This document shows positions 10,150-54,512 of a stretch of DNA of 64,000 bases, one piece after another. Within the stretch, counting starts at the first letter, position 1; each line of letters begins with the position of its first letter. The DNA comes from Minisyncoccia bacterium. GTDB taxonomy: Bacteria > Patescibacteriota > Minisyncoccia > UBA6257 > 2-01-FULL-56-20. The notes under the pieces are model-generated. The model was not told the DNA's origin and did no database searches. It saw nothing but the letters and a program-made list of their open reading frames with translations. The DNA lies in assembly GCA_049997875.1 (NCBI GenBank), contig JBEKRC010000001.1:14775-78774 (forward strand), in the 5' to 3' direction. Made by a program: the position numbers and the translations under genes.

Positions 10150-16881
<6,732 letters not shown>

Positions 16882-16928
16882 TACACACAAAAACGGTGCC
16901 ACTCTTTATTCCAAGAGGTCCCGTTGGC

Positions 16929-22547: not shown

Positions 22548-22746
22548 TCATTCCTGTTGTCTTCGATTTCTCGAAGTGTCGGACTATATATTCATCCCGC
22601 CCATGCGGGAGCTTGCGTGTAGTCTCTACGGAGTCCCTGATCGAATCGGGGTTCCCTCGGTATTGCCCTATTTGCCTGTGCAAACGTAGGTTTCACCGAT
22701 ACAGCAAGTGCTTCAAGATCAATCACTTGATCAAGGGGCAAGTTTC
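22548..22746 (-). mobile_element. roughly 200-nt ORF-less insertion in 23S rRNA at about L1951 (possible small or degenerate group I intron)
   Basis: The exon reads ...UUUUCGGGU | about 197 nt | AAGUUCCGAAGCGCACGAA. The insertion ends in G. Confidence 0.45.
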
Positions 22747-22769
22747 CTTACCCGAAAAGGAATTGCGCT

Positions 22770-23517
22770 CAATTGTGTTAATCTGCATGTCGCCATGCAG
22801 TTCGGACCATATCTTCCCGCGATGCGGGTTCGGCATATGGTCTCTGAGGATTCTAGAAACGGATTTTCTTTCGATTCGTTTTTGAAGCAATGGTAAGAAT
22901 TTTATTCCATCCATCTTCTTTGAGATGGAGTTTTTTACTCATCATTTCCACTACCTTTTTGAACAAAACAAAATCGTTTTGCTTATAGGTCTTTAATGGA
23001 AATTGATCAAAAAATGGAATAATTATTTCTTTCAATTCCGAAATTGATCTCACGCAGTATCGATAAAGATGTTCGTTGTGATTATCGCATCGTTTATTAA
23101 GGACGATACTGCCACACCCGAAGAACTCTTTTATCGCTACGAGGGCGTTTAAACTTTTTGCGCCTTGCGTGATAACAAATTCCGGGAATAGTTGCTTTCC
23201 GAATCGAGTGGTTGAATTTTTGATCACCGAAATAACGAAGCTACCTTCGCCGTCGGTAAATCCAGATATCCAACTTGCCGTTTTTAGTCTTTCCTGCTGA
23301 TTGTCTGCACCGATCATATTTTCACTATACTCATGAAACATTAAATTTCTCTAAAGTTTTCATGAAATACAGTAATGTCGGATGCTCAGATGTTCCAGCA
23401 TATAGCCGATTAAAGGATATTCTGCAGGGCAGAATAGGCTGCGCTTTTATTTTGTTGTACCAAAGCCATAATCGTTCCAATCCTCGCCAGCACCTTTAAT
23501 AAATAAAGACGCGGGCG
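22770..23517 (-). mobile_element. group I intron in 23S rRNA at about L1931
   Basis: The exon reads ...AACUAUAAUCGUUCUAAGGU | intron | AGCGCAAUUCCUUUUCGGGUAAG. The intron ends in G and contains an intact homing endonuclease ORF. Confidence 0.7.
22853..23341 (-). CDS. LAGLIDADG homing endonuclease (intron-encoded)
   Basis: The 162-aa product has an N-terminal WISGFTDGEGSF (LAGLIDADG-type) motif, is AT-rich, and is on the same strand as the rRNA. Confidence 0.85.
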   Translation of the reverse strand: MFHEYSENMIGADNQQERLKTASWISGFTDGEGSFVISVIKNSTTRFGKQLFPEFVITQGAKSLNALVAIKEFFGCGSIVLNKRCDNHNEHLYRYCVRSISELKEIIIPFFDQFPLKTYKQNDFVLFKKVVEMMSKKLHLKEDGWNKILTIASKTNRKKIRF

Positions 23518-25132
23518 ACCTTAGAACGATTATAGTTATCGCTGACATTGACGAGGGCTTGAGTCAGTGAGCAATACATATTACTACATATCACCCCCAA
23601 CCTTGACCTTCTCGCATCGGTCAGGCGTCACCCCCTATACATCCTCTTGCGAGTTAGCAGGGAGCTGTGTTTTTGGTAAACAGTCGCCAGAGAAACTTTC
23701 GCTGCGGCTCCATCGAGACTGAAAGAAGGAAGGGAGGGGATCCTCCCTGAAGAATAATTTGGCCGGGCGGTGCACGACGCAGTAAAAACAAGGAGAGCCT
23801 AATCTCTTCATTCCTACTTGCAGTGAAACCGCGCACCACCCGATATGCCGTTTCCTTCTTTCAGCCCCGATAGAGCAGGCCATATTGCTAACGTACGGCC
23901 GCTTTTTTGCCGAGTTCCTTAGAGGCAAATCACTCGTTCCCCTTGGGCTTCTCGCCCTATCCACCTGTGTCGGTTTACGGTACGGATCCTTTGCAACGTA
24001 ACCGCCGCGCTTTTCTCGGAAGGCTCTTCGTGCGTGTTGATGAGGTAAATTCCTCACCTTCCGCCGATCCTTGTTGAACTTCGGACCAGCGATACCAAAC
24101 CAATAAGGCATACGCACCTATTTCCTTCGCACACGACGGATAATCACAAAGGAGGGCTGGAATATTAACCAGCATTCCATCAGCTGCGGCTTTCGCCATC
24201 GCCTTAGGATCGCCTAACCCGTGGTTGATTGCCAGTGCCACGGAAACCTTGGATTTTCGGGGTTCCAATTTCTCATTGGGATTGTGGTTACTCATACCAA
24301 CATTTTCTCTTCGTATCGCTCCACTCGCCCTCACGGGTCGGGCTTCACTGCAATACGAATGCTCTCCTACCACTCACCGATCCCGAAGGATCGGCGAATC
24401 CGTATCTTCGGTACCATGCTTAGCCCCGGTACATTTTCGGCGCCACCACCCGTCGAATAGTGAGTTGTTACACACTCTTTAAAGGATGGCTACCTCTAAG
24501 CCAACCTCCTATCTGTCTATGGGTGATGACTACCTTTAACACTTAGCATGGATTTGGGGACCTTAGATAACGGTCTGGGCTCTTCCCCTCGCGACCACGG
24601 AGCTTAGCCCCCGCAGTCTGACTAGTGCGGGATCCGCCTGCGGTATTCGGAGTTTGATTGATCGATCGGCCTTTCGGCCTTTACCGATCATCCAGTGCTC
24701 TACCCCCGCAGGATTTTCCGCACCGCTAGTCCTAAAACTATTTCGGAGAGAACCAGCTATTACCGAATTCGATTAGCTTTTCACTCCTTACCTCAGCTCA
24801 TCCGAGAGTTTTGAACAACTCACCAGTTCGGGCCTCCCCTTCGATTTCTCGAAGGTTCACCCTGGCCAAGGCAAGCTCATCCGGCTTCGGGTCTACCTTG
24901 TGCTGCGATCCCACTCAATAAATTGAGTGGGATGTACGCCCTATTAAGACTCGCTTTCGCTATGCCTGCACGCTATGCGCGTTTAGACAAGCAACACAAG
25001 ATAAGTCGTTGGCTCATTCTTCAATAGGCACATTGTCGCACCGCGCGGACACATTGCTGCGTCCACGCTTAGTGCTTCAATTCCTTGTAGACAAATGGTT
25101 TCAGGTTCTATTTCAACGGCCTCACCGGCCTG

Positions 25133-25169
<37 letters not shown>

Positions 25170-25859
25170 ATCTAGAAAAGTATTTAGCCTTACCTGATAG
25201 TACAGGCAAATTCCTTCGGGACTTATTTACCCCGAAGTACTCAAGTTGAAAAACTAAGGAGATCGTAAGTTTTCGCCTACGGGACTATCACCCTCTTTGG
25301 CCCCGCCTTTCCAGGCGGCTTCGGCTAACCAACGATTTTTTTACTCCTCCTTATTTCACCAATCGCCGAATCCCCGGGACGTGCCCGGAAACTCGGCGAC
25401 CAGTAAAACAGCGTCTCTCTCTTATAACCCCAAGGTCCGATCTTGCGATCAGAACCTTAGTTTAGGCTCTTCCCTGTTCTCTCGCCGATACTAAGGGAAT
25501 AAACTGATTTGTTCTATGTTCCTTTGGCTACTGAAATGTTTTACTTCGCCAAGTACGCGAATCGGCTTGCGCCGAAACAATTACGGTTTACGTAATTAGG
25601 TTTCCCCATTCGGACATCCCCGGATCACAGGTTGCTACGCACCTCCCCGAGGCGTATCGTCGCTACGCCACGTCCTTCATCGCCTTTTCTAGTCAAGGCA
25701 TCCACCATTCGCCCTTATTGAGATCCGTCTTGCGACGGAAATGCCAACCATCCCAATGCTGACTTTTACTTATTGAGACTGAGAGAAGGAGCGGAAAAGT
25801 TTGGTGATGGTTACCATTCCTCCGCTACTTTCAATATGTTGTTCTCCTGAGCCTGAGTT

Positions 25860-25935
25860 TGGAGCGCGAGACGGGATTTGAACCCGCGACTTCTGCCTTG
25901 GCAAGGCAGCACTCTACCGCTGAGTTACTCGCGCT
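25860..25935 (-). tRNA. tRNA-Gly (GCC)
   Basis: Canonical cloverleaf GCGCGAG...CUGCCUUGCCAAGGCAG...GGGUUCAAAUCCC...CUCGCGCUCCA with CCA encoded. It lies just upstream of the 23S 5' end. Confidence 0.85.
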
Positions 25936-41968: not shown

Positions 41969-42148
41969 AACCCATCTCCAAAATAGGCGCACGAGGATCA
42001 TGAACCATTTTCGAGCGAGAAACGTGAATCCCGACAAAGGAATACCTCGTGGCATTGCGAGGAGGGATTCGCGTTTCGCAGCCGAAAATGGCCATAAGAG
42101 TCGTGTGGCCTATTTTGGAGATGGGTTCTCACGTGGTAAAATAGCCAC

Positions 42149-42616
42149 ATGGCATCATTTGAAATGAAATGGGAAGCGCCGGAGTACGAGTACCGCGAGA
42201 AAGGCGTGTCGTGGTACTGGATTTCCATCATCATCGCGGCCGTCATCATCGCATTCTCCGTCTGGGAAAGGAACTTCCTCTTCGGACTTTTCGTCGTCAT
42301 CGCGGAGATGCTTTTCATCGTATGGGGCAACCGCGCGCCGCGCACGGTGCGCTTCGCGCTCACCGAAAACGGCGTAGCGATAGAAGGAGGAAAATCCCAT
42401 TCGCTCAAGGACTTTGAGAGCGTGAGTGCGACGGCAGCGAACGACGGCTGGGTTGAACTTACATTTACCTTCCGCGCAAAACTCAAAACGCCTTTAAAGA
42501 TTTTCCTCCCGGAGGCGCGGCTCACCGAATTCCGCAACAACATGAAGCTGATCCTCAGGGAAGTGCCCCACGAACCGACGCTGCTTGACTCCATTGAAAA
42601 GCTCGTCGGGTTTTAG
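42149..42616 (+). CDS. hypothetical membrane protein
   Basis: The 155-aa product has two TM helices followed by a soluble domain. Confidence 0.45.
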   Translation: MASFEMKWEAPEYEYREKGVSWYWISIIIAAVIIAFSVWERNFLFGLFVVIAEMLFIVWGNRAPRTVRFALTENGVAIEGGKSHSLKDFESVSATAANDGWVELTFTFRAKLKTPLKIFLPEARLTEFRNNMKLILREVPHEPTLLDSIEKLVGF

Positions 42617-42632
42617 TAAGGTGAAAGCGTCG

Positions 42633-42700
42633 GCATGCGCTCCCGCTGTGTGCGCCCTCCTGCGCAGACGAAGTCGGTCGCACACAGCGGGAGCGCATGC
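42633..42700 (+). repeat. perfect 22-bp-stem hairpin with a 24-nt loop (element H2), 3 nt upstream of tRNA-Arg
   Basis: 42633-42654 is the exact reverse complement of 42679-42700. The loop ccctcctgcgcagacgaagtcggt is near-identical to the reverse complement of the H1 loop. Confidence 0.6.
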
Positions 42701-42703
42701 TAC

Positions 42704-42775
42704 GCCCTCGTCGTTCAACGGACAGGACGCAAGATTGCGGATCTTGTAATAGAGGTTCGATTCCTCTCGAGGGCA
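42704..42775 (+). tRNA. tRNA-Arg (GCG)
   Basis: GCCCUCG/CGAGGGC acceptor, GUUC/GGAC D-stem, anticodon arm CAAGA-UUGCGGA-UCUUG, T-arm AGAGG-UUCGAUU-CCUCU and discriminator A. Confidence 0.8.
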
Positions 42776-42857
42776 CCTTGCACAAAACGGCAGAAAACGG
42801 TTAAATTAGGGCATAGGCGAAAAACGCCAAAGGTCTAACTAATTCTTTAACAAAAAT

Positions 42858-43616
42858 ATGAGCATTTTCTCGACCCTAAAACAAGACGCCATAAACTTCC
42901 TCGAACCGTACAAGACCAAAGAGCCAGCCACGTATGCAGCAGCGGAACAAGCAATCGGAGCCATCCTGATAACCGACGGCTTTGTAGGCATAAGCAATCC
43001 GTTCGGACGCAAAAAGCGTTCGGGCATATTCGGCACGATTGGGGGAATGGTTTTGGGAATCATCTTTATATTCATCCCGACCATAACTAACAACGTAACG
43101 GGGATTAACTCGATGACCGCAACGACTTCGGCGACCGTCGTTTCGATCGGTGCACCAAGTTATACGACCAGCAGCAATGGCAACAGGAGTGCCGCATGTC
43201 CCTTGACCGTGAGCTACTCGGTTAACGGCCAAACCTATACGCAGCAATCATCCATCTCCTCCTCGGATTACTGCTCCTTATCGCAAGGCCAGAGCATCGT
43301 TATAAATTACAACCCAACCAGCCCCGGCTCTTGGGTCTATGGGGCAAAGACGATCGGCTATATTCTCGAAATATTCTTTTGGGCGGGATGGCTCGTCTTG
43401 CTTTCCAGCATTATCACCTTCTTCATCCGGCTGTTCAGCATCATCTTCGGCTGGAAATTGGTAAGGGACGGTCGGAAGAACGCAGCCGCCCTGCCTCCGG
43501 GAACGAATCTTCAAACTATGATCGAAGAAATCAAAAAGAACTTTATAAGCAGTACATTTGGATTTGGAGGCGCAGCGAATCCACCTCTCAATGGTATTGG
43601 CGGAACCCAACTGTAA
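42858..43616 (+). CDS. hypothetical membrane protein
   Basis: The 252-aa product has TM segments flanking a Ser/Thr-rich extracellular domain. Confidence 0.45.
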   Translation: MSIFSTLKQDAINFLEPYKTKEPATYAAAEQAIGAILITDGFVGISNPFGRKKRSGIFGTIGGMVLGIIFIFIPTITNNVTGINSMTATTSATVVSIGAPSYTTSSNGNRSAACPLTVSYSVNGQTYTQQSSISSSDYCSLSQGQSIVINYNPTSPGSWVYGAKTIGYILEIFFWAGWLVLLSSIITFFIRLFSIIFGWKLVRDGRKNAAALPPGTNLQTMIEEIKKNFISSTFGFGGAANPPLNGIGGTQL

Positions 43617-44080
43617 TGATAAAAGATTTCATACGGAAAGGAACTTGCGCCGCGGTCGTGGCATGCGCGCTATTGGCTAGCGGTGTGATACTTGCGAACG
43701 GGCAAACTTATCCATCGGATACAACCACCACCATTGCAACTTCCACCTCCTCCTGCACGGTGAACGGACAGCCCGTCCCTTGCGGCCAACTATTTAAGTC
43801 TATTGGATGGTTTGCGGGGATAGGATTTGGCCTTATTATTCTTTTTATCGTCATATCCATTCTCTGCCTTATCTTTTGGATATTTATGCTAGTGGATGCA
43901 ATCAAAAAACCGATTCAGCATAAACCCCTTTGGATAATTATCCTTCTTCTTTTCGGTATTGTAGGTGCGATTGTATATTATTTCGCGGTAAAACGGAGTG
44001 CCGATCCGTTGGTGAATGGGAACATTCAGAAAAATAATATTGCTACACCAACCAGCACGCCTCCTCCAGCCGTAGGCTAA
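43616..44080 (+). CDS. small membrane protein, hypothetical
   Basis: The start overlaps the upstream stop (TAATG). It has a signal/TM segment, a Thr-rich stretch and a C-terminal PLWIIILLLFGIVGAIVYYF helix. Confidence 0.45.
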   Translation: MIKDFIRKGTCAAVVACALLASGVILANGQTYPSDTTTTIATSTSSCTVNGQPVPCGQLFKSIGWFAGIGFGLIILFIVISILCLIFWIFMLVDAIKKPIQHKPLWIIILLLFGIVGAIVYYFAVKRSADPLVNGNIQKNNIATPTSTPPPAVG

Positions 44081-44196
44081 TAGTAAACACCCGCTTTATA
44101 TATAGGTATAAAAATAGCCGCTATTCATAGGCGACCAGGTAACCCGCGGATCCTTTCTTTACTAATTTTTGCGAAGATTCTATATTGTAAACAACA

Positions 44197-44928
44197 ATGC
44201 CCTTGGAAAAATTTGACCAAGAATCTGTTTCCACCAACGGTGCAGAACAAGAAAGGGACAAAGAGATAGAAAGCGCCCTAGAGAAAATCCCCAATGCGGA
44301 CGCCGTCGTTGTTTTGGGAGAATGGTTTGAGATGAATAAGAATGGGAAAGCCGTTCCTTCTCTTGAATCAAAAATGAGAGCCATTGGGGCGCTTGAACTT
44401 TTTGAGAGGGGAAAAGTAAAAAAGATCATTATCAGCGGGAGCGGTCATCGGAAGGGCGTTTCCACCGAGGCAACAGTTGCGGAGGCGATGAAAGAGTATT
44501 TGCTCTCGCGGGGTATCCCCGAAAATGCTGTCTTTACGGAAGGAACATCTATCAATACTGCCGAGGGCCTCGAAAACGTTCTTGGCTTACTAGAGCAGGA
44601 AGACATCAGAAAAGTGCTTCTTGAGACGAACGAATACCATCTGCCACGCGCTAGACAACTTTTCGAAAATATTCTTAGGAAGCATGGCTTGGATATCAAC
44701 CTTGCAAATTCTGTTTCTGCGGAAGAGTTATTAAAGGAGCGCTCCCCGCATTACGAGAAGCTCACTTCTCATTTCGAATTTCCATCGTCCTTAAAAAACG
44801 CACCGAGAGAAGCTCTCCAGAAGGGACTGCGAGAATTTCTGCGCCGCGTACTTATTTATGTTGACCGCGACGATAAAATTGCAAAATTTCTTGCCGGGAA
44901 AATACGTGGCTCCAGAACCAGAGAATAA
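44197..44928 (+). CDS. DUF218 (YdcF/ElyC/SanA-like) domain protein
   Basis: VVVLGEW...AIGALELFERGKVKKIIISGSGH pattern of the DUF218 family. Confidence 0.55.
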   Translation: MPLEKFDQESVSTNGAEQERDKEIESALEKIPNADAVVVLGEWFEMNKNGKAVPSLESKMRAIGALELFERGKVKKIIISGSGHRKGVSTEATVAEAMKEYLLSRGIPENAVFTEGTSINTAEGLENVLGLLEQEDIRKVLLETNEYHLPRARQLFENILRKHGLDINLANSVSAEELLKERSPHYEKLTSHFEFPSSLKNAPREALQKGLREFLRRVLIYVDRDDKIAKFLAGKIRGSRTRE

Positions 44929-45071
44929 CCGCAGATCGGGGGCTTCGGCAACGATCTAAAAACAATCCTAAAAAATGTTTGTGGGGCTTTCCTCGCAAAC
45001 TTTGGAGATTCTGGAGGGACACAGGAAAGATGCAATGGCGCTTTGGAGGGATAGGGTAACTACTCTTCCGT

Positions 45072-45611
45072 TCATCCTTTTTCATCAATTCGGAAACCGA
45101 ATTGTCCCTTGTCGTCCAGTTTTTCCCGGGGCGGTTCCATAAGCTTTTTAATCGCCCTAAAGACCACCATGAATTGCCCATCATATCTCCTTTCCATGGC
45201 CTCAATCTTCCGCGCAAGTTCTTTATGCGCAGCAAGTAAAGACCGGAACCTTACGAATGCCCGCATAATGGCGACGTTTACTTGCGCTGCGCGCTCGCCC
45301 GTGAGCACACTTGAAAGCATTGCCACTCCATGTTCCGTAAAAGCATACGGGAGAAATCCGCCCAAACTGCGTTTGGAAGGTATCACATTTTGTGATACCA
45401 AAGTTTTCGCCTCTTCCCGTGAAATCTGAAACATGAAATCTTCAGGAAAGCGGTTTTTGTTCCGCCTTACTTGCTGCCGCAGCGCGATTGCCCTAACGCC
45501 ATAGAGCACCGCGAGATCTCTATCCAACATCACGCGGCATCCCCGCACCAGCAGTATCTTACTTTCAATACCCTCCGTTTTTAGGATCGCCGGAGCGATG
45601 GTTCGTTTCAT
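45072..45611 (-). CDS. ORF6N (KilA-N-related) domain DNA-binding protein, paralog 1
   Basis: ILLVRGCRVMLDRDLAVLYGV...RRNKNRFPEDFMFQ...FTEHG. About 60% identical to the 47662-48333 product. Confidence 0.7.
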   Translation of the reverse strand: MKRTIAPAILKTEGIESKILLVRGCRVMLDRDLAVLYGVRAIALRQQVRRNKNRFPEDFMFQISREEAKTLVSQNVIPSKRSLGGFLPYAFTEHGVAMLSSVLTGERAAQVNVAIMRAFVRFRSLLAAHKELARKIEAMERRYDGQFMVVFRAIKKLMEPPREKLDDKGQFGFRIDEKG

Positions 45612-45718
45612 GATTACCATACTACAGGTTGATGATTAAATTTTCTTAAAATTTTCCAATTAAAATGCCGACTTGGATTGATATTCTTTTAAAAACGTAT
45701 ACAATGAAATCCAATAGC

Positions 45719-45793
45719 GCGGGTATCGTATAGCGGCTATTATGCGACCTTGCCAAGGTCGAGATACGGGTCCGACTCCCGTTACCCGCTCCA
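45719..45793 (+). tRNA. tRNA-Gly (GCC), second copy with a noncanonical T-loop
   Basis: GCGGGUA...CGACCUUGCCAAGGUCG...ACGGGUCCGACUCCCGU...UACCCGCUCCA. The T-loop is UCCGACU instead of UUCGAAU. CCA is encoded. Confidence 0.7.
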
Positions 45794-45923
45794 GTTTTGA
45801 CCCCGGCGGCGCAACGGTATATAATGAAAACAATAGCAAAATGCCCTTATGGAGAGGGCGTTTTGCTTGAAAAGGGCGTGCGTTGCGCCCCGCGTAACGA
45901 GACCACGGCATATTACGTTCCCT

Positions 45924-46460
45924 ATGTTAGACAGCGAGCCAAAACTGATCAAGGAAGCTGTCGCCGGGAAATCCTCGGCGTTCGGCCCTCTTTACGATCA
46001 TTATCAACCGATGATCTATCGGTTCGTGCTCGTGAAGGTCGGCCGGCGTGAGGACGCCGAGGATATCACCCATCAGGTCTTCCTCTCGGCATGGCAGAAC
46101 ATCAGGAGCTACAAGCACCGCGGGTATCCTTTCTCAAGCTGGCTCTATCAGATCGCGCGGAATCAGATCGTTGATCACTACCGCGCAAAGAAAAACGAGA
46201 CGAGTCTTGAGAAAATGGATCCCGAACGCTTCGCCATTCCCGCCACGGCGCAGTTTGACCTTTCTACGAAGCTTGAGGCGGAGAGAGTGCTCGCGGTTCT
46301 CGCCACGCTTAAGCCGGAATACCAGGACGTCATCATCCTCCGATTTATTGAGGAACTCCCCATCAAGGAAACCGCCGGGGCGATGGAGAAGACCGAAGGG
46401 GCGGTAAAACTCATGCAACATCGGGCGATCAAAGAGCTGCAACGGATACTCACCGCATAA
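45924..46460 (+). CDS. ECF-type RNA polymerase sigma factor (sigma-70 regions 2 and 4)
   Basis: YRFVLVKVGRREDAEDITHQVFLSAW (region 2) and DVIILRFIEELPIKETAGAM (region 4 HTH). The ATG at 45924 is preferred over 45849. Confidence 0.85.
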   Translation: MLDSEPKLIKEAVAGKSSAFGPLYDHYQPMIYRFVLVKVGRREDAEDITHQVFLSAWQNIRSYKHRGYPFSSWLYQIARNQIVDHYRAKKNETSLEKMDPERFAIPATAQFDLSTKLEAERVLAVLATLKPEYQDVIILRFIEELPIKETAGAMEKTEGAVKLMQHRAIKELQRILTA

Positions 46461-46467
46461 TGAAACC

Positions 46468-46941
46468 ATGACCCTTTTTGAAATTCTCAAACAATTTAAA
46501 AATATAGAACCGGATGCCGCGTTCAAGGAAACTTCCAAGCGGGCGATTTTGGCTATGGAGCCGAAGGCGGCCGGATGGAGCGCGCAGCGGACTTTTTGGA
46601 AAATCATTGAAACCGGGGTGGCAGTGGCGCTTACTGGATTTTTCATATTGCTCATCACGGGCGCGTTCCCCGGATCAGAATTCTCCCCCGCCCGATATTC
46701 GGCCATTGACCCCCAGAGTCTCCGTGCGGAAGCGCAGGCGATTGATATCCAAATTCAGCTCGCCAATTTGAGCTACCGTTCGCCGGCGGCGGTTTCCACG
46801 GCGGCGGTCGCGGGAACAAAGCCCGGCAGCGCCATAACGGCGCCCACGGGCACGCTTCCCGCAGCGAATGGCACGGAGGCCACCTCAAGCGCCACTTCAA
46901 GCGTGAGCATTGATGATGCGCTCCGCAGCCTCTCTAAATAA
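46468..46941 (+). CDS. putative anti-sigma factor (single-pass membrane protein)
   Basis: It lies immediately downstream of the ECF sigma gene. It has a roughly 50-aa cytoplasmic N-domain, a TM segment and an Ala/Ser/Thr-rich extracytoplasmic tail. Confidence 0.45.
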   Translation: MTLFEILKQFKNIEPDAAFKETSKRAILAMEPKAAGWSAQRTFWKIIETGVAVALTGFFILLITGAFPGSEFSPARYSAIDPQSLRAEAQAIDIQIQLANLSYRSPAAVSTAAVAGTKPGSAITAPTGTLPAANGTEATSSATSSVSIDDALRSLSK

Positions 46942-46948
46942 CATCGGC

Positions 46949-47731
46949 GTGAAAACCTTATCCGTCAAAACCATCGTGTTTTTGATCACGCTCCCAGTCG
47001 CCCTGGGAATTTTCCTTCTTGTGTCGCGGACGGCGCGCGCTGACGCAAGCGCTCGCGCATCCTGCGTCATCATGCCCGCCGACCTTGATGCCGTAACGGC
47101 AGCCGAAGCGCAGGGGCTTCTGGCCGAACTTGCGGCCCGGAAAGCGCTCCTCGCGAAAACAATCACGTGCGCCAAGGCCGACGTGCAAACGCTTGAGGAC
47201 GACCTGACGAGCGTCTCGTCAACGAGCGACGACGCAAAAACACTCCAGTCGCAACTTTTGGGAAGGCTCGGCGATGCGATGAACTATTACGACATTGAAC
47301 TTGTGAAAGTGAACGGTGCGGGCGTCGCGGGAACGCAGGCAGTCGCAAAAGAAGTGCTCGCGTGGCGGGCTTCCCATTACGATCCTCTCGCCGGGCAGGT
47401 GGCGAATTTCATACTTTGGTCAAAGAACCAGGATCTTTGGAGCGCCGCGGAGAGCCGGCTTCAGGGAATAGGAAACCTTATTTCGCTCCTCACGCAGGCG
47501 GCGCCGAACAATGACCTCCAAAGCGATTTTGCGAACGCCCAAGTGCTCGTCCAAACCGCGAGCGATGAAAACCAGGCGGCGAGAGATTCCCTCCTCCGTT
47601 CGCTGCCCCCCGACCAGTCGCTCTCAATCATCCAGCGATCGCTCCAATCGCTTTCCGGCGCCTACCAAAAGTTTTTTGACATCAGCACGATTGCGCAGAC
47701 GCTCCTGCCCACTGAAAAGACGGGCCAGTAG
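46949..47731 (+). CDS. secreted hypothetical protein
   Basis: A GTG start 8 nt after the upstream stop gives a signal peptide (VKTLSVKTIVFLITLPVALGIFLLVSRTARADA). The ORF track's ATG at 46910 would overlap the upstream gene. Confidence 0.45.
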   Translation: MKTLSVKTIVFLITLPVALGIFLLVSRTARADASARASCVIMPADLDAVTAAEAQGLLAELAARKALLAKTITCAKADVQTLEDDLTSVSSTSDDAKTLQSQLLGRLGDAMNYYDIELVKVNGAGVAGTQAVAKEVLAWRASHYDPLAGQVANFILWSKNQDLWSAAESRLQGIGNLISLLTQAAPNNDLQSDFANAQVLVQTASDENQAARDSLLRSLPPDQSLSIIQRSLQSLSGAYQKFFDISTIAQTLLPTEKTGQ

Positions 47732-48333
47732 ATATCCTCCGCACCCGCCTTGAGGTCACAATTTACAACCTCATTTTTTTCGCCCGCTTGAAAACCAAAT
47801 GGTTCTTTGCCTGAATCGGTTTCTGGTAGCGGCTTCATAAGCTCTCTGATCGCCTCAAAAACGGCGTGGAACCTTTTATCATATCTCCTTTCCATATCTT
47901 CAACCTTTCGCGCAAGTTCCTTGTGCGCGGCGAGGAGAGTATGAAGGCGAACAAACGCCCTCACCACAAGGATGCTTGCCTCAACCGCCACGCGACTTTG
48001 CAAAACGCTCGCCAACATTACTGCGCCATGCTCGGTGAAAACATAAGGTGAATAACGAACGTTCCTTTTTGATGCGGTCGCAATTTGCGACCGCATCAAT
48101 TTTGGCAAATTTTCCGCCTCTTCTCCGGTCAACTGGAACATAAAATCCTCGGGAAAGCGACTCTTGTTCCGCTTCACTTGCTCATTGAGCCGCTTTGTGC
48201 CCACTTGATATATCGCAGCGAGATCCGCATCCAGCATGACGCGGCATCCCCGTACCATCAGTATTTTACTTTCTATGTTGCCCGTTCCGATGCCTCCCTT
48301 TTGAGTAATCGCCGCTGCAACTTGTTTCTTCAT
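47662..48333 (-). CDS. ORF6N (KilA-N-related) domain DNA-binding protein, paralog 2
   Basis: ILMVRGCRVMLDADLAAIYQV...KRNKSRFPEDFMFQ...FTEHG. The 3' end overlaps the secreted-protein gene convergently. Confidence 0.7.
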   Translation of the reverse strand: MKKQVAAAITQKGGIGTGNIESKILMVRGCRVMLDADLAAIYQVGTKRLNEQVKRNKSRFPEDFMFQLTGEEAENLPKLMRSQIATASKRNVRYSPYVFTEHGAVMLASVLQSRVAVEASILVVRAFVRLHTLLAAHKELARKVEDMERRYDKRFHAVFEAIRELMKPLPETDSGKEPFGFQAGEKNEVVNCDLKAGAEDIYWPVFSVGRSVCAIVLMSKNFW

Positions 48334-48453
48334 GCCACAATTATACGCACCGGACATTAAATCATTCTAAATTTGGTTCGTGCGCAGAAACGCGAAGGGC
48401 CCCGCGCGTGCAGGGGCCCTTCCGGCTAAACAGAACAAAGGATCCTTTGTTCG

Positions 48454-48729
48454 CTACAATACCGCTTCTTTGAGAAGCTTGCCGGCCCGGAACTTCGGCT
48501 TCGTGGAGGCCTTGATCTGGATCTTCTCGCCCGTCTTCGGATTCCGGCCCTCGCGCGCGGCGCGCTTCGCAACGCGGAATGTCCCGAAGCCCGTGACCGC
48601 CACTTCCTCGCCGTGGCTCATGGTCTTCACAATCGTGTCAAACACGGCATCCACCGCCCGCTCCGCCGCCGCTTTCGTCTCAATCTCCGCGGCTTTCATC
48701 ACCTCCTCAACCAATCCTTTTTTGTTCAT
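48454..48729 (-). CDS. hup: DNA-binding protein HU
   Basis: The 91-aa product has the GFGTFRV...R.GRNPKTGE HU/IHF arm. Confidence 0.85.
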   Translation of the reverse strand: MNKKGLVEEVMKAAEIETKAAAERAVDAVFDTIVKTMSHGEEVAVTGFGTFRVAKRAAREGRNPKTGEKIQIKASTKPKFRAGKLLKEAVL

Positions 48730-48806
48730 TGATGATGGTTACTGTTTCCGACCTTTATTTGGTTCCCCATAAGTATAGCAAATACAAGGGGGAATGGCGA
48801 CAACGC

Positions 48807-48832
48807 AAAAGGCCCCCTTGCGGGGGCCTTTT
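48807..48832 (-). terminator. rho-independent terminator (aaaaggccccc-ttgc-gggggcctttt) after the giant surface-protein gene
   Basis: A 7-bp GC stem flanked by A4/T4 runs. It lies about 45 nt beyond the stop at 48875 in minus sense. Confidence 0.6.
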
Positions 48833-48874
48833 GGCATTCCCGTCCGTCACAAGCGGAGAGGTCAGATCAAACAA

Positions 48875-51800
48875 CTACGAGTTCTGTTGGAACTGGACGT
48901 TGAAGACCTGGAGCGGAGTGGTGATTGCCGGCGTCAGAGTGACACCAGTCACAGTCGTGCTGTTGGAATTCGTGCCATCCGTGTACTGGATAGACGTTGC
49001 AGCACTGACCGTACCGGCCAGACTGACGGAGTTGTTGCTTCCCGCCACTACCGTGTTGTCCTGGTCGTCAGCATACAACTGGAAGGTAACCGGGCTGCCA
49101 TTGACCTGGAAGCCGTTGATGCCGACACCGAAACTCCACGTTATCGTGCAGCTCTGGCTGGCACAACTCGTTGTCGCGGGCGTGTACTTCGTCCCGTTCA
49201 GGTAGAGGTACGTGCTCGTCGCAAACGCGGTCGCAACGGCGCTCGTCGCCGAGATCGCCGATCCCGAGAGGGTGATCGTCGTCGTATTGACGGCGACTGA
49301 CCCGCTGTTAATCGGCGTAAATGTTACCGTCGCAAGCTGGTCAGACGTGCTCTTCGGACGGCTGCTAACGCTGCCGTTAACCGCGCCCGAGAAGCTCAAG
49401 ACGTTCTGCAAGACCGTTTGCTGCGTGCCCGCCGCGCTGGAGAGCGTGACGCCCGTAGAAATGTTGGACGTATTGCCCAACGCAACGACCGTAGCAATCG
49501 CAGTCGCTTGAGCCGTCGAAGTCGCGACTTCAAACGTGTGGATTGCGCCATCCGTAACATTTCCCGCTGAGTACGAATTCACGCCGCCCTTAAGGGTAAG
49601 CGCGAGCGTACCATTCTGCGGGATGACGAACGGACTGGGAGTGCCGCCAAACGAGAAGTGGTAGAGGAAGGCATTCTGGCCACTAACCACAGTTGCGCCG
49701 ACATACGTAGCCGCGTTGCCGACCTGTGTTGAACCGTTCCACAGGGTCAGGGTACCGAACGACGGCAAGACGTTCGCCGTGTTCGTCGCCACGCCCAAGG
49801 TAGACGTCGTCAAGGCATCAGCCACATATAAGTCGGTCACTCTCACAGGCTCAATGTTCTTCGTTTCCTGGAAGTTGAACGCTGCGAGTGTGTTGTTGTT
49901 CGTACCCATCGAAAGCTGGCTAACCGAAGGATTGTATCCTTGGTTAGTCGAAACCGTGATGGAAGTCCCGCTGGTTGCAACTGTCAAGGACTGCCCCCTC
50001 GTAATACCGCTGCACGAAAGAGCGCTGTATGAAACAACACTCGTCCCGGAACAGCCGGTAAGAGAAGAGGCGGGAGACTGGCTAGATGCTCCAGAAAGGA
50101 TATCGGCATAGACATCCACGTTCGTTGTCTGTCCTGCGGCAATCGTGAATGGCGAGCCGGAGAACGTATATGTTCCCGCGTCAGCCACAACGCCCTGCGT
50201 CGTGCCGAACTGCGTGCCGCCAATCATGACCTTCATGTTCTGGATGTCGCCAGAGCCAGTGCTGCTCGGTGCCGGCTTGAGGCTTATCGTATTGATCTGC
50301 ACGCCGCTCGCGGACGAAGCCGTGAACGAGTAGGAGCCGATGTGAACGCCAGTGCTGTTTGGCGTAACGGTCTGATTGCCGTAGGCAGAGTTCGCGGCAA
50401 TCGAGAGCAAGCTGGACTGCAGCGAGAGCGCGCTGCCCGATGCGCCGGACGAAGAACCCGGCTGGCTTGAGGTCAAGCCCTGCAGGTTGCTGGCGGTCTC
50501 GGCCAAGAGGGAAGCCGCTATCGTGAGGAAGCTTGCCGTGGACTGGATGTCGGCCTTCAAGGACAACACCCGGGTTGTGTTCGCCGGAATGATGTAGTTG
50601 ATCGGCGAATTGTTCGTGCCGAAGCAGTCAACGTAGTTACCGCTGGTTGCCTTAAAGGTACCGTCCGTGGCGCTGTTTATGATGGTATTCGTACCAGTGT
50701 CACAAGTGTTGCCCGACGGAGGCGTGTTGATGGTGGTACCCACCTGACCGCCTGCATCGTCAACGAGCGATATGTTCTTGAGCATGTTGCTCAACGCAAG
50801 CACGCCGGAACTCGTCGTCACGCTAGTGAGCGCGATCTGGAAGCCGAGGAATTTCACCTTGACCGGCTCGCCAGCCGCGTAGATGTCAAACTTCGCGAGC
50901 ACGACGCCGGACTGGCCGACCGCAATGTTGCCGGTCGGGGTCGCGGAGTCCTGCGAGACCGTGATCTGGCCCTGCTGGATGCCTACCTGCGTGCCCGCAC
51001 CACCCACCACCGATACCGAGATCGGGACGTTGTACTGCGAGTCAACCGCGTAGACGTCGTAGGAGTTCAAGATCTCGAACGCGAAGTTCTTTGAAGGAGA
51101 ACCCATGACATCCGCAAACACCTGGACGTTGTTGCTCCCGGTGTTTATGCTCGCCGGAGAGGACGAGAGGTCAAAGTAGGCCACCCCGTTCGCGCCGACG
51201 GTCGCCAAGGCGGAACCCACCTGCGCGCCGTTCACATTAAGCTTCACGTTCCGGATGTCGGCGTTGTTTGCCGAACCGATGACCGTGAACTTGATGCCTT
51301 TGAGGTACGTCAGGCTGTTCTGGCCCGTGAATGTCCAGGCGCCGACGATGTTATTCTGCGTACCCGCCGTAACCTGCGTCGCGATGGACGAAGACGCCGT
51401 CGTCAACGACGCAAGGGACGGGTTGCTGACCGTCGTTACTGTGAAGATGCTGCCGGTGAGCGGGAACGCGCCGGACGGCGTGATCGCGTTGTTGGACGCG
51501 TCAACCGCCGTGATGTCCGAGGCCGCGCTTACCGCAAATCCCACCGTGTTGCCGGAGGCAAGATTCGTTGAGGGGTCAATCGCCACCCAGAGGGTCTGCG
51601 TCTGGCCGGCTGAGACCGAAAGGGCCAAGCCGGAGAAGTCAATGACGCCTTTGTTAAGCGACGTGTACTGGTAGAGCACCTGGCCGTTCTGGACCAAGTA
51701 CGCGCCAGCGATAGAGCTGTCCGAAAGGACGCCCGTCTTGTGGACTTTAACGTCCGTTACCGTCACCGCGCCCGAGTTGGACGCCGTAAGGTTAATGGCC

Positions 51801-52429
51801 AAGACCGGAACGCGCGCCGCTGCCGCCGATTGGGAAGAGACGAGCGAACCAGCCGCCGGATTGGACGAACTAAGAGAAACCGCGAGGCCGGTCGCCGGCG
51901 GAGTCACCGTCGTCGTCGTGGTACCCGAAGCACACGACTGACCAGTCGTCGGGCTGTAACCGGACGACGAAGTGCAACCAGCTGGATAGCTAGTCGTCGT
52001 GGTAGTCGTGCCAACGGTCATAGAATTCACGAATGCTCTGGTTATAGGACCAAAGTATCCGGCTGCAGGAGAAATACCGTTCGCCGCCTGGAACTTTCCG
52101 AGGGCTGCCTGGGTTAGAGAACCAAAGTAGCCTGTCGGAGCCGAGACCGCGGTAAGGTATCCCTTGTTAATCAGGAGCTGCTGGAGCGCGGTCACGTCAG
52201 CACCCCTTGAACCAACGGTGAGGTCGCTGGTGAAGGAGTACGAAGATCCCGTGCCCTGCGTGCTTCCCAATTGTGCCTGCAACTGTTGGATCTGCGCGAG
52301 CAAAGCCGTGATCTGAGCCTGAAGGCCAGATGCGGTCTGTGCGTTCGCGAGAGGAAGGGCGGCAATCCCCAGCGCCCACACCACTGTGGTCGCCGTGAGT
52401 GCCACCGAAATCAATTTTTTACTATTCAT
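48875..52429 (-). CDS. large secreted surface protein with two peptidoglycan-binding (PG_binding_1-like) domains and long Ser/Thr-rich beta-repeat regions
   Basis: The 1184-aa product has a signal peptide, a Gln-rich coiled coil, two LQQLLINKGYL...GYFG...AALGKFQAANGI repeats, then low-complexity T/S/G/A/V repeats. Confidence 0.7.
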   Translation of the reverse strand: MNSKKLISVALTATTVVWALGIAALPLANAQTASGLQAQITALLAQIQQLQAQLGSTQGTGSSYSFTSDLTVGSRGADVTALQQLLINKGYLTAVSAPTGYFGSLTQAALGKFQAANGISPAAGYFGPITRAFVNSMTVGTTTTTTSYPAGCTSSSGYSPTTGQSCASGTTTTTVTPPATGLAVSLSSSNPAAGSLVSSQSAAAARVPVLAINLTASNSGAVTVTDVKVHKTGVLSDSSIAGAYLVQNGQVLYQYTSLNKGVIDFSGLALSVSAGQTQTLWVAIDPSTNLASGNTVGFAVSAASDITAVDASNNAITPSGAFPLTGSIFTVTTVSNPSLASLTTASSSIATQVTAGTQNNIVGAWTFTGQNSLTYLKGIKFTVIGSANNADIRNVKLNVNGAQVGSALATVGANGVAYFDLSSSPASINTGSNNVQVFADVMGSPSKNFAFEILNSYDVYAVDSQYNVPISVSVVGGAGTQVGIQQGQITVSQDSATPTGNIAVGQSGVVLAKFDIYAAGEPVKVKFLGFQIALTSVTTSSGVLALSNMLKNISLVDDAGGQVGTTINTPPSGNTCDTGTNTIINSATDGTFKATSGNYVDCFGTNNSPINYIIPANTTRVLSLKADIQSTASFLTIAASLLAETASNLQGLTSSQPGSSSGASGSALSLQSSLLSIAANSAYGNQTVTPNSTGVHIGSYSFTASSASGVQINTISLKPAPSSTGSGDIQNMKVMIGGTQFGTTQGVVADAGTYTFSGSPFTIAAGQTTNVDVYADILSGASSQSPASSLTGCSGTSVVSYSALSCSGITRGQSLTVATSGTSITVSTNQGYNPSVSQLSMGTNNNTLAAFNFQETKNIEPVRVTDLYVADALTTSTLGVATNTANVLPSFGTLTLWNGSTQVGNAATYVGATVVSGQNAFLYHFSFGGTPSPFVIPQNGTLALTLKGGVNSYSAGNVTDGAIHTFEVATSTAQATAIATVVALGNTSNISTGVTLSSAAGTQQTVLQNVLSFSGAVNGSVSSRPKSTSDQLATVTFTPINSGSVAVNTTTITLSGSAISATSAVATAFATSTYLYLNGTKYTPATTSCASQSCTITWSFGVGINGFQVNGSPVTFQLYADDQDNTVVAGSNNSVSLAGTVSAATSIQYTDGTNSNSTTVTGVTLTPAITTPLQVFNVQFQQNS

Positions 52430-52589
52430 TGAGTAATTTGTTTTTCGACTGTTTATCTGATATCGGCCATTTGGCCGTCGACCTTTCTGTTGTTTTGCTT
52501 ATGTCTGGACCGTTTTCCCCACCCTTGTCCGCGATCGCTGTGAGGTTGCGACAGCGGGAAGAATGAAGAAAACGGGGTCGTAGCTATAA

Positions 52590-52616
52590 AAATGAAAAAA
52601 CTCGCTTTTAGCGAGG
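52590..52616 (-). terminator. rho-independent terminator for the 52734-53384 gene (cucgc-uaaaa-gcgag followed by U6 in minus sense)
   Basis: The plus strand reads aaaaaactcgcttttagcgaggccgg. Confidence 0.55.
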
Positions 52617-52625
52617 CCGGTTGTT

Positions 52626-52704
52626 CTAGTAAACCTAGTTTCTAGGAAACCTAATTTCCAGCGCACCAGAAACTAAGTTTCCTGGGGTTCCCAGTTACTA
52701 GGGG
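52626..52704. promoter_or_regulatory. cluster of short palindromes/direct repeats (cctagTTTctagg, ggaaaCCTAAtttcc, gaaacTAAgtttc, ctgggGTTCcccag) upstream of the giant surface-protein gene
   Basis: The GAAAC/GTTTC and CTAG half-sites repeat three or four times within 80 nt between a regulator-like gene and the surface-protein 5'UTR. Confidence 0.4.
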
Positions 52705-52733
52705 TCCAGCCTCACACTGAACCGTTACTCATA

Positions 52734-53384
52734 TTATAACGCGTCTACAGGGGAAAGGTTACCACTTTCTTGCCGAATCCGGTACAACATGGCAGGCCCT
52801 CCGCCCCCGACCCTTTCTATGCGATTTTGCTCAAGAAGGGATTGGAGGTCGTATCGGATCGTTCTTTCGCTGCAACCCGACAAAAGTTCCTGTATATCCT
52901 TAATCCGGCAATTGCCGGATTGCCGGATTTTTTCGAGAATTGCCGATTGTCGCATCGCGGCTTTTGCATTGTTTGCCGAATTATGTGCATTTTCAGCTTC
53001 TTCGCTGTGTTGCCGCTTTGCCGGAAACAAAACATCTTGCTCGTCAAAAATATCTCCAAGCGGAACCTCGCTGATTTCTGCCGGTTTCTCCGATCCGGCA
53101 ATTGCCGCATTCAACACGCCGACCTGAAAAGCCAACGTCTCTCCGTTCGCTTTATGGATCAAGCCTACATCGCTCCCAAATCGTACGAGATGCTCAATGA
53201 CGCCAGAAATCGTCGCCATGAGGCCATAATTTCCGACCACGGCAGCATCCAAAAGGGACAGCGCTTGCCTTTCCAGAGATTCCTTGAGGGCCGCACTTGT
53301 AGATCTTGAACATACGCGGAAGATCGCGTAGCTGATTTCATATGCTTTCTTGAGCGCGAGCTTATTTTTGCCGGTTTCTTCCAT
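52734..53384 (-). CDS. putative transcriptional regulator with a C-terminal DeoR-like HTH
   Basis: AILEKIRQSGNCRIKDIQELLSGCSERTIRYDLQSLLEQNRIERVG HTH. The Met at 53384 is preferred over 53414. Confidence 0.5.
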   Translation of the reverse strand: MEETGKNKLALKKAYEISYAIFRVCSRSTSAALKESLERQALSLLDAAVVGNYGLMATISGVIEHLVRFGSDVGLIHKANGETLAFQVGVLNAAIAGSEKPAEISEVPLGDIFDEQDVLFPAKRQHSEEAENAHNSANNAKAAMRQSAILEKIRQSGNCRIKDIQELLSGCSERTIRYDLQSLLEQNRIERVGGGGPAMLYRIRQESGNLSPVDAL

Positions 53385-53456
53385 ACGGCAAAGCATAATC
53401 CGGCAATGTGGCAACCGTCAAGAGGCAACGGAGGCGAAAATACTTTAACCAAAGGC

Positions 53457-54512
53457 TCATTTTTGCGTTACATAGTTATAATAGTTATATACGAGACTAG
53501 AGATACCTTTTAGGATAGAAGTTAGTTTTGTGAGATCGTTTCCCTTGGTCATAATACAGAGCGCATAAGGGTCGTTCGGAGCGTACACGATGCCGCAGTC
53601 ATGCAATTCGATTGCTTGGATAGTAGTGCTTGAAGCGTCAACGCGCTCACCGTACTTTTGGGCCACTTCTGTCCCTTGGGGAACGCCCGCCGATATACCA
53701 TCGTGATAAGTGGATTGACTCATGAGCGAGAGGGATATTTCAGAGTACCGTTCAGATAAATAGGTGGCATTATATAGAATCCTTAAGAAATTGATGTATT
53801 GGGCCGGTGAGAGCGTATAATCCCCGGTCACGGTGTCGGGACTTCGTATGCCTAAGTCAATGTATGCCTGATCTAGTATCGTATGGTCGACATTGTCAAT
53901 GAGCAGGGTTTCCGCACCATTATCGGAATTGGCGATCATGCTTTGCATCAATTGATTAATGGGATAATAAGTCCCAACTTTCAAGTTTGTGGGAAGATCG
54001 AAGGCTAAGGAATTTACTTGTTGGTTGACCGCATTATTGTAGAGCAGGGTGCTGTTTAGAATAGGGGGGTTCAACTCGGCCTCTCTGAAATACGCCATCA
54101 TGATCAAAACTTTAAGCAGGCTTCCTGGATGATATTGAACATCTTGACTCTCTTGGGCCCATGTAGCTTGAGAAAAATTTCTAACAGCGACCGAAATGCT
54201 TTGAGCGTTTCGGCTCTGGTACTGGGTTTCCACATAGTTATGGATCGCCGTTTCTAAACCATGGTCTTCAAAAAATTGTTTTACATCTCCCAAATCATAG
54301 TAAAGCAAAGGATAAATGAAATGGTATTCTTGATTATTCTCACGGATCGGCTTTATGGTCAGGATCTCTTGCTTCATCAAATTCGTTGTGTGCATGTATG
54401 CTATCGCGTAGCCCAAACTAAAAGTGATAATAAAAAAAAGCCCCAAGGACACCACCATCTTTTTAAGGGAGAGCTTATATAACCTTCTTGCTTTCTTATC
54501 TGGGGACGGCAT
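53457..54512 (-). CDS. class A beta-lactamase / penicillin-binding-protein family serine hydrolase (lower-GC gene)
   Basis: N-terminal TM anchor, SLLK (SxxK) and ANSDNGA (SDN) motifs. Markedly AT-richer than its surroundings. Confidence 0.6.
   Translation of the reverse strand: MPSPDKKARRLYKLSLKKMVVSLGLFFIITFSLGYAIAYMHTTNLMKQEILTIKPIRENNQEYHFIYPLLYYDLGDVKQFFEDHGLETAIHNYVETQYQSRNAQSISVAVRNFSQATWAQESQDVQYHPGSLLKVLIMMAYFREAELNPPILNSTLLYNNAVNQQVNSLAFDLPTNLKVGTYYPINQLMQSMIANSDNGAETLLIDNVDHTILDQAYIDLGIRSPDTVTGDYTLSPAQYINFLRILYNATYLSERYSEISLSLMSQSTYHDGISAGVPQGTEVAQKYGERVDASSTTIQAIELHDCGIVYAPNDPYALCIMTKGNDLTKLTSILKGISSLVYNYYNYVTQK

Follow-up and report, generated by a model that had tools for sequence, protein, structure and literature searches.

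A lineage-conserved extracytoplasmic function sigma factor operon in a Minisyncoccia bacterium and two unrelated ORF6N genes, likely later additions

Background

In a 64,000-nucleotide stretch of Minisyncoccia bacterium contig JBEKRC010000001.1 (assembly GCA_049997875.1, forward strand, positions 14,775 to 78,774; hereafter the window, whose own numbering we use), two minus-strand genes for ORF6N-domain proteins bracket a plus-strand unit. This unit comprises a tRNA-Gly(GCC), an extracytoplasmic function (ECF) sigma factor, a membrane protein that is a putative anti-sigma factor, and an exported protein (Table 1). An earlier sequence-only reading had listed these features, all of which are present, and had seen in them one integrated element or a phage-derived switch controlling cell-surface functions. 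Here, the locus was compared with its counterparts in related genomes. We consider it likely that the locus is a conserved core to which two unrelated ORF6N genes were later added, rather than a single mobile cassette.

Results

Table 1. Features of the locus and its surroundings, in window coordinates
Feature	Position	Strand	Details
Canonical tRNA-Gly(GCC)	25860–25934	-	ARAGORN; 19.8 kb away
tRNA-Arg(GCG)	42704–42777		
Variable interval, tRNA-Arg(GCG) to tRNA-Gly promoter	42778–45657		Contains DUF3592, PLDc_N-like, DUF218, ORF6N_A
DUF3592 gene	42858–43616		
PLDc_N-like gene	43616–44080		
DUF218 gene	44197–44928		
ORF6N_A	45072–45620	-	182 aa; PF10543 E=6e-31; PDC-S05 E=2e-48
Sigma-70-like promoter of tRNA-Gly	45678–45705	+	TTGATA-16-TACAAT; 10/12 consensus positions
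tRNA-Gly(GCC)	45719–45793	+	ARAGORN; Infernal 54.9 bits
Sigma-70-like promoter upstream of sigma gene	45797–45825	+	TTGACC-17-TATAAT; 11/12 consensus positions; conserved in relatives
Terminator-like 14-bp hairpin	45836–45868	+	AGCAAAATGCCCT / AGGGCGTTTTGCT; between sigma-70-like and ECF-type promoters
ECF-type promoter-like motif	45894–45919	+	GTAAC-N17-CGTT; ends 5 nt ahead of sigma ATG
ECF sigma factor	45924–46460	+	178 aa; Sigma70_r2 and r4_2
Membrane protein, putative anti-sigma factor	46468–46941	+	157 aa; one transmembrane segment, residues 43–70
Exported all-helical protein, third operon gene	46913–47731	+	272 aa; N-terminal hydrophobic segment, residues 12–42
ORF6N_B	47662–48357, likely start 48333	-	PF10543 E=3e-33; PDC-S05 E=6e-50
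ORF6N_B insertion, ~670 nt	47715–48388		Between secreted-protein gene and terminator hairpin common with HU
Palindrome P1	47752–47775		GGTCACAATTTACAACC core; just downstream of ORF6N_B body; resembles P2
Palindrome P2	48069–48099		Perfect 15-nt arms; inside ORF6N_B; encodes MRSQIATAS
HU (Bac_DNA_binding)	48454–48729	-	PF00216 E=1e-31; core gene
Giant surface protein, candidate ECF target	48875–52429	-	1184 aa; PG_binding_1 domain; gene calls
GTAAC-N16-CGTT(ATAAT) motif	52739–52762	-	~310 nt upstream of giant gene

The GTDB species representatives were scanned with an alignment of the sigma factor, which returned 26 species with orthologues at 58–96% identity. Their loci, designated by L-numbers, span ~20 kb each, and 24 of the 26 are long enough for gene order in the operon to be called. 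L016 and L027 denote the same locus, that of the closest relative (~91% nucleotide identity in the flanks). Five loci with homologues of the secreted protein (88%, 85%, 65%, 58% and 57% identity) were also fetched and compared. Phage and mobile genes were sought through Pfam scans of the larger open reading frames (ORFs) of the window and gene calls for the 36–57 kb region. The arrangement was found in more than five independent metagenome assemblies, which rules out an assembly artefact, and positions 42000–53000 are 100% identical to a peat metagenome contig.

The sigma, membrane and secreted genes constitute a lineage-specific ECF operon of a Paceibacteria/Minisyncoccia family within the candidate phyla radiation (CPR), and are core DNA. 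Their order is kept in 22 of the 24 judgeable loci, with HU convergent downstream in 19. All five fetched loci share a backbone of the three genes followed on the opposite strand by HU, the giant PG_binding gene, DeoR and ClpB, and four of them carry an NTP-transferase gene between the last two. The identification of the ECF sigma factor was confirmed, as the protein has regions 2 and 4 only and matches TIGR02937 (ECF superfamily) at 104 bits against a cut-off of 42.9 bits. It scores 143.4 bits with the BldN-family model TIGR02952, under that model's equivalog cut-off of 206.45 bits. A 203-residue version of the ORF starting at 45849 is a probable over-extension and the start at 45924 is preferred; the resulting N-terminus, MLD(S/G)E, occurs in all five aligned relatives except L017 (MVDGE). 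Sequence conservation in the closer relatives is much higher for the sigma factor (76–96% identity) than for its partners, with 57–88% for the secreted protein. In two more distant relatives (L040 12396–14399, L044 12332–14301), dnaN-/dnaA-like ORFs, judged by sequence only, directly follow HU, and in these genomes the sigma operon and HU would adjoin the replication origin region.

The membrane-protein gene starts 8 nt past the sigma stop codon and adjoins the sigma gene in all 26 species. Its product keeps the same layout throughout: an N-terminal segment of ~30 residues, one transmembrane helix, an extracytoplasmic helix (AEAQAIDxQIQLANLxY), a low-complexity linker and a conserved C-terminal motif. 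No Pfam match was obtained for any of 16 orthologues (E<=1), and a 16-sequence profile searched against the PDB also returned nothing. The sequence holds no HxxxCxxC motif, and a class I anti-sigma domain (ASD / zf-HC2) is not detectable. The protein, a membrane anti-sigma candidate in the earlier reading, has a single membrane segment and always follows the sigma factor. This position and topology suggest that the protein is probably the anti-sigma factor of the operon. The third gene product begins with the hydrophobic segment expected of the signal-peptide protein that had been called here. Its AlphaFold2 model (mean predicted local distance difference test, pLDDT, 85) is a helical bundle with helices over residues 46–265, and Cys52 and Cys87 are invariant. 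It has no Pfam relative, and a fold search against the PDB gave no meaningful match (best E=0.2). Among its 52 homologues, every given name is Paceibacterota/Minisyncoccia.

The ORF6N genes behave differently from this core. Both proteins cover the full 86-position PF10543 domain, with 107 and 114 bits against a 27.8-bit cut-off, and no third copy was found in the window by tblastn. Of the 26 species, only four (L026, L030, L031, L032) have an intact ORF6N gene close to the operon; L027 has a remnant and none has two copies, so ORF6N genes are not ordinary core genes of the lineage. A B-type copy sits between the secreted-protein gene and HU in L026. The copy at the same site in L030 is of A type; it shares 74% identity with ORF6N_A, which sits elsewhere in the window and has no other counterpart in the related species. 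In L031 and L032, a single copy lies beyond HU, in the gap that separates it from the giant gene. The G+C content at third codon positions (GC3) is 0.51–0.52 in both window genes, versus 0.63–0.80 in the operon, HU and the other core genes of the window, which served as reference. Given this low GC3 and their patchy presence among relatives, the ORF6N genes are accessory and foreign-looking. By GC3, these two genes stand out and the interior of the block, which is core-like, does not. In the same way, the block does not come and go as a unit; what varies between relatives is the ORF6N genes and the interval upstream of the tRNA-Gly promoter. This 2.9-kb interval, with ORF6N_A at its right edge, is replaced in L016 by four unrelated genes, and its GC3 is 0.46–0.61 (0.46–0.47 for DUF218 and PLDc_N).

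ORF6N_B occupies a discrete insertion. Junction alignment showed that L017 and L018 lack it, that L020 has it and that in L016 it carries an internal deletion; no target-site duplication is visible. The gene is 91% identical to the L020/L026 copy. Its conserved body spans 47773–48333 (187 aa). Beyond this, a 3' tail running into the secreted-protein gene is non-conserved read-through, explained by an indel relative to L020. A search with the palindrome pattern gave four matches where 0.43 were expected by chance. In L016 (10850–11100), ORF6N_B is inactivated by a deletion of ~325 nt that joins P1 to P2.

It had been suggested that the two ORF6N genes are duplicates, ~60% identical. We measured 54% identity over 187 aligned residues, and ranking both proteins jointly against the family placed them 115th and 124th in each other's neighbour lists. 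The top 120 relatives of ORF6N_A, out of a family of thousands, are 59–100% identical to it; they include proteins at 60–74% identity from Planctomycetes, Omnitrophica, Acidobacteria and Zixibacteria, and some carry Bryobacteraceae or Terriglobia labels. ORF6N_B has more than 100 database relatives at 56–71% identity. Local duplication was therefore rejected, since each gene has over 100 closer relatives than its neighbour, and these ranks indicate two separate acquisitions.

The tRNA-Gly, for its part, is a lineage gene. It has the cloverleaf, the GCC anticodon and, as read from its sequence, the bases that glycyl-tRNA synthetase recognises. The identity elements of this enzyme are G1:C72, C2:G71, G3:C70 and U73. 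Its promoter lies inside a block common with L016 that starts at 45658. The tRNA is 100% identical in L017 although the flanks are only ~72% identical at the DNA level, and it lies within 10 kb of the sigma gene in 13 GTDB species. Between copies, the anticodon stems vary by compensation (CGACC/GGTCG, GCACC/GGTGC, TAACC/GGTTA, GTACC/GGTAC, TCACC/GGTGA). Identity despite diverged flanks, together with these compensatory changes, marks it as a functional, vertically inherited tRNA and not cargo; it is a lineage-conserved second GCC isoacceptor. Both the canonical tRNA-Gly(GCC) within 20 kb and the unusual T-loop noticed previously were verified. The loop UCCGACU places a C at position 55 and departs from the canonical U54-U55-C56. 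C55 occurs in 4 of the 17 tRNA-Gly copies compared (window, L017, L020/L026, L036), and among 13 GTDB relatives U55 is found in 11 and C55 in 2. C55 was observed on two T-stem backgrounds, ACGGG/CCCGT (window, L017, L026) and AGGGG/CCCCT (L036 8206–8278), and the different stem in L036 implies that it arose at least twice. Staphylococcus has non-proteinogenic tRNA-Gly species used for the cell wall; an analogy with these for the T-loop was dropped because U55 is the majority state in relatives and the Pfam scans of the window yielded no Fem-type transferase. In two independent Logan assemblies (L003/L009 and L005/L012), contigs break in the 5' half of the tRNA-Gly, at ~45720–45749, with ~30 nt of overlap, a pattern that points to differences between strains in the DNA before the tRNA, where the variable interval lies.

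With these observations, it becomes very hard to sustain the idea of a single integrated cassette, mobile or phage-derived, in which the ORF6N genes would form the ends of the 3.3-kb block and the rest would be cargo. It draws on the two same-strand genes that bracket the unit, as had been described, on the match of their domains to PHROG anti-repressor families and on the tRNA at one edge. Yet 22 of 24 related species keep the interior, most of them lacking ORF6N genes; the tRNA is itself conserved across the lineage, GC3 is core-like in the interior and not in the ORF6N genes, and the two bounding genes are not each other's relatives. Near 45000, near 48400 and at the tRNA ends, where attachment-site (att)-like repeats were sought, only short direct or inverted matches at chance level were seen, and no integrase, transposase or phage gene was found among the window ORFs scanned.

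What controls the conserved operon was explored through the sequence upstream of the sigma gene. Bacterial ECF promoters typically carry AAC at -35 and CGT at -10. The motif GTAAC-N16/17-CGTT precedes the sigma gene in 25 of 26 species, 5–6 nt from the ATG, with no conservation of the spacer sequence, and at such a distance the sigma mRNA would be leaderless. The motif stands ahead of both the sigma gene and the giant surface-protein gene, the latter being one of the places where a search for ECF promoters had been proposed, and these are its only two matches in the window. The second site is kept in all nine related species in which the start of the giant gene was located, and the giant gene adjoins HU in all nine where it was found. 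Together, the two positions account for 34 of the 45 matches in 381 kb of related loci, where 23 are expected by chance. The shared motif suggests that the sigma gene is autoregulated and that the giant gene is under the same sigma factor, with promoter use by the sigma factor being predicted. The earlier view that the sigma factor controls a cell-surface function is thus probably correct.

Other elements around these promoters may also be regulatory. The hairpin between the sigma-70-like and ECF-type promoters is nearly invariant across relatives, its changes being G-U wobbles only, and roughly 18 of 26 sequences, read by eye, have a G+C stem followed by a T-run at this position. The gap from promoter to hairpin is ~10 nt, and the order of promoter then terminator recurs in many related species. 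Together, the two elements (45797–45868) could produce a tiny RNA of ~40 nt, or act as an attenuator or insulator. The leader of the giant gene (52430–52735, minus strand) starts with a terminator-like, conserved 5' segment (GTAAAGGTTCAGTGTGAGGCTGG ... CCGGCCTCGCTAAAAGCGAGTTTTT) that encloses a variable core with repeats, and its last ~110 nt before the start codon are very highly conserved, making it a candidate structured RNA or attenuator. A search of 45000–53500 against Rfam at a permissive threshold returned the tRNA alone, with no match for the sigma hairpin or the giant-gene leader. In ORF6N_B, a TATAAT hexamer lies 6 nt before the likely start codon (48333–48350), and neither this gene nor the sigma gene (45919–45926) has a Shine-Dalgarno sequence. 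From such start regions, leaderless mRNAs may be common in this organism.

To consider what the ORF6N proteins might do, we examined their family and fold. An exhaustive search at E<=1e-10 placed 12,911 clusters (50% identity) in the family, and all 33 residues that are invariant in a 35-sequence alignment are kept in both window proteins. The AlphaFold2 model of ORF6N_A (pLDDT 77) has an alpha/beta N-domain followed by long helices of lower confidence, and the best structural match of the N-domain is the winged-helix-like Dachshund/SKI DNA-binding domain (probability 0.92, TM-score 0.53). On this model, ORF6N_A is probably a small protein that binds DNA; its tail probably serves oligomerisation, and an enzymatic domain is lacking. 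The match to phage anti-repressors (E ~1e-22) involves the N-domain only, at positions 13–125 of 268 of PHROG 4792. ORF6N_A and ORF6N_B lack a C-terminal Pfam domain such as the anti-repressor architecture has, and none of the large ORFs of the window is a phage gene, so there is no prophage setting with a cognate repressor. Both proteins match the PADLOC family PDC-S05 over nearly their full length (PDLC04856, positions 6–165 of 177). PDC-S05 comprises ORF6N/RhuM-like single-gene candidates, and PDC families as such were delimited through "guilt by embedding", from genes found inside type I restriction-modification (RM), bacteriophage exclusion (BREX) and DISARM (defence island system associated with restriction-modification) loci (Payne et al., bioRxiv 10.1101/2024.01.29.577857). 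One PDC-S05 member, which bears a RhuM domain, reduced plating of T7 and T5 by ~1000-fold in E. coli (bioRxiv 10.1101/2024.09.26.614923). No RM, BREX or DISARM genes were found in the window by Pfam scans and gene calls.

Genes of defence type recur at the same sites in relatives. AbiEi/AbiEii lie between HU and the giant gene in L036, AbiEii with a DUF6922 protein occupies this place in the more distant L023, and L037 has an AAA_14/DUF4143 ATPase matching PDC-S01 between the secreted-protein gene and HU. The ORF6N copies at the HU locus themselves come from at least three ORF6N lineages. Unrelated defence-type genes and ORF6N genes of several lineages at the same sites make the HU flanks, across these ~20-kb loci, a small site of turnover for accessory genes. 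An alternative reading of this recurrence is that the ORF6N proteins are domesticated local regulators, for example of HU, the tRNA or the sigma operon. Five species, the window's included, have ORF6N beside HU on the same strand (the others being L026, L030, L031 and L032), the fold is of a DNA-binding type, and the two similar palindromes at and inside ORF6N_B are possible binding sites. We nonetheless regard such a role as unlikely, as ~80% of species have the operon and HU without any ORF6N gene, the copies are of several lineages, unrelated defence-type genes take the same sites in other species, and homologues in other phyla lack HU or sigma neighbours. Four homologues from other lineages were inspected for these neighbours and had neither, and a general link between ORF6N and HU was rejected on this basis.

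A further alternative, that the ORF6N genes are the last neutral relics of decayed integrative elements or prophages and are heading for deletion, seems somewhat less improbable, though still doubtful. It would fit the low GC3 of both genes, the decay of ORF6N_B in L016 by internal deletion, the 277 matches of the family in IMG/VR viral contigs, and the ORF6N genes that directly follow a site-specific integrase in a Parabacteroides conjugative element and a Legionella plasmid. Against it, both ORFs are intact with 33 of 33 invariant family residues kept, the ORF6N_B insertion measures just ~670 nt, has clean junctions and brings in no further foreign sequence, and few sequenced phages carry the family (5 of 50,697 records). 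A prophage origin of the genes was rejected on account of this rarity; plasmids rarely carry the family either (25 of 72,556 records). On the Legionella plasmid and in the Parabacteroides element (L136 4992–5888 and L137 5007–5537), the ORF6N gene is immediately 3' of the integrase, and ArdA comes next in Parabacteroides. From this arrangement, the protein might take part in integration or excision or govern how the element enters a cell, which suggests recombination or regulation instead of defence.

Elsewhere in the window, the remaining genes are housekeeping ones, encoding aminoacyl-tRNA synthetases, GatA/B, ribosomal proteins, FtsW, a Mur ligase, type IV pilus components, ClpB and HtrA. 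All RpoB and RpoC domains were found in one ORF of 2250 residues (10150–16902, minus strand), in which the beta and beta' subunits are fused. The 23S rRNA gene (21811–25728, minus strand) spans 3918 nt versus a 2925-nt model, corresponding to insertions of ~1 kb, and includes the ORF of a LAGLIDADG homing endonuclease at 22853–23341. Insertions of this kind in rRNA genes are typical of CPR bacteria.

Discussion

The reading that we favour, of a conserved core with two unrelated later additions, would work as follows. The ECF-type promoter of the sigma gene itself (GTAAC-N17-CGTT) would give rise to a leaderless sigma mRNA, and the sigma factor would also drive the neighbouring gene for the giant peptidoglycan-binding surface protein through a promoter of the same type. 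The operon would then be an autoregulating envelope-signalling module, with the membrane protein as its anti-sigma factor. ORF6N_A and ORF6N_B would be separate acquisitions, both drawn from a vast family of small DNA-binding proteins that has spread horizontally; the former borders the variable interval that runs from tRNA-Arg to tRNA-Gly, and the latter lies in the hotspot beside HU. The two proteins would probably act on invading DNA, as single-gene anti-phage candidates (PDC-S05) or as regulators left over from mobile elements, and would stand outside the sigma module.

Several observations weigh against parts of this picture. The membrane protein has no anti-sigma domain detectable in Pfam or PDB profile searches. 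The motif ahead of the giant gene is directly followed by TATAAT, and the housekeeping sigma factor could use this site instead. The PDC-S05 member that was assayed has a RhuM domain, which is absent from the window proteins, so that defence activity is not simply transferable to them. The four ORF6N homologues from other phyla sit among unrelated genes and not in defence islands, and in two cultured genomes the ORF6N gene directly adjoins an integrase at the edge of an integrative element. Finally, the enrichment of ORF6N beside HU is drawn from loci of ~20 kb.

A bolder version, to which we give little credence, would make the HU flanks a dedicated miniature defence locus that swaps short ORF6N, AbiE and PDC-S01 genes, with the short ORF6N proteins as minimal single-gene anti-phage effectors and with a position beside the sigma and surface-protein module that may be functional. 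If this were true, the giant surface protein would be a likely attachment or phage-receptor structure next to a defence locus.

In place of a mobile cassette, the comparison offers a simpler picture and three testable leads for CPR bacteria. These are a conserved ECF sigma module with a defined promoter motif and a giant surface protein as its predicted target, a small insertion hotspot at HU with turnover of candidate defence genes, and a second tRNA-Gly(GCC), itself conserved, in which the nearly invariant U55 can be replaced by C. Current knowledge is not overturned, and the ORF6N proteins are unremarkable within their very large family.

Among known systems, the operon is closest to ECF operons with an accessory third gene, such as sigM-yhdL-yhdK of Bacillus subtilis and BldN-RsbN of Streptomyces. 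The likeness lies in a sigma factor of regions 2 and 4 only, next to which come genes for a single-pass membrane protein and then for another protein of the envelope, with an AAC/CGT-type promoter directly upstream as is usual for autoregulated ECF sigma factors; the predicted target here is a surface protein. Unlike in these systems, the sigma factor scores below the BldN cut-off, the anti-sigma domain is not recognisable, the third protein has no Pfam or PDB relative and a leaderless mRNA is implied. Phage regulators and anti-repressors with KilA-N, ORF6N, Bro-N or Rha N-terminal domains were reportedly described by Iyer, Koonin and Aravind in 2002. The window proteins share with them the N-terminal ORF6N DNA-binding domain, whereas their C-terminus is short, helical and specific to the family, and no prophage, repressor or phage gene lies nearby. 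PDC-S05 of PADLOC is matched by the near full-length hidden Markov model hits, by solitary and patchy genes, and by AbiE and PDC-S01 at the same sites in relatives; the differences are that the window genes are not embedded in RM, BREX or DISARM loci and lack the RhuM domain of the assayed member. The HU flanks also recall defence islands and the notion of a "genomic sink" (Makarova et al. 2011, cited in bioRxiv 10.1101/2024.01.29.577857). They resemble these in that an intergenic site can house one defence-type gene in one genome and another in a related one (PDC-S05, AbiE, PDC-S01), and differ in having no integrase or mobile framework in the window or in the examined gene tables of relatives, and in their tiny scale, since a genome of ~0.9 Mb has just one or two such genes next to HU.

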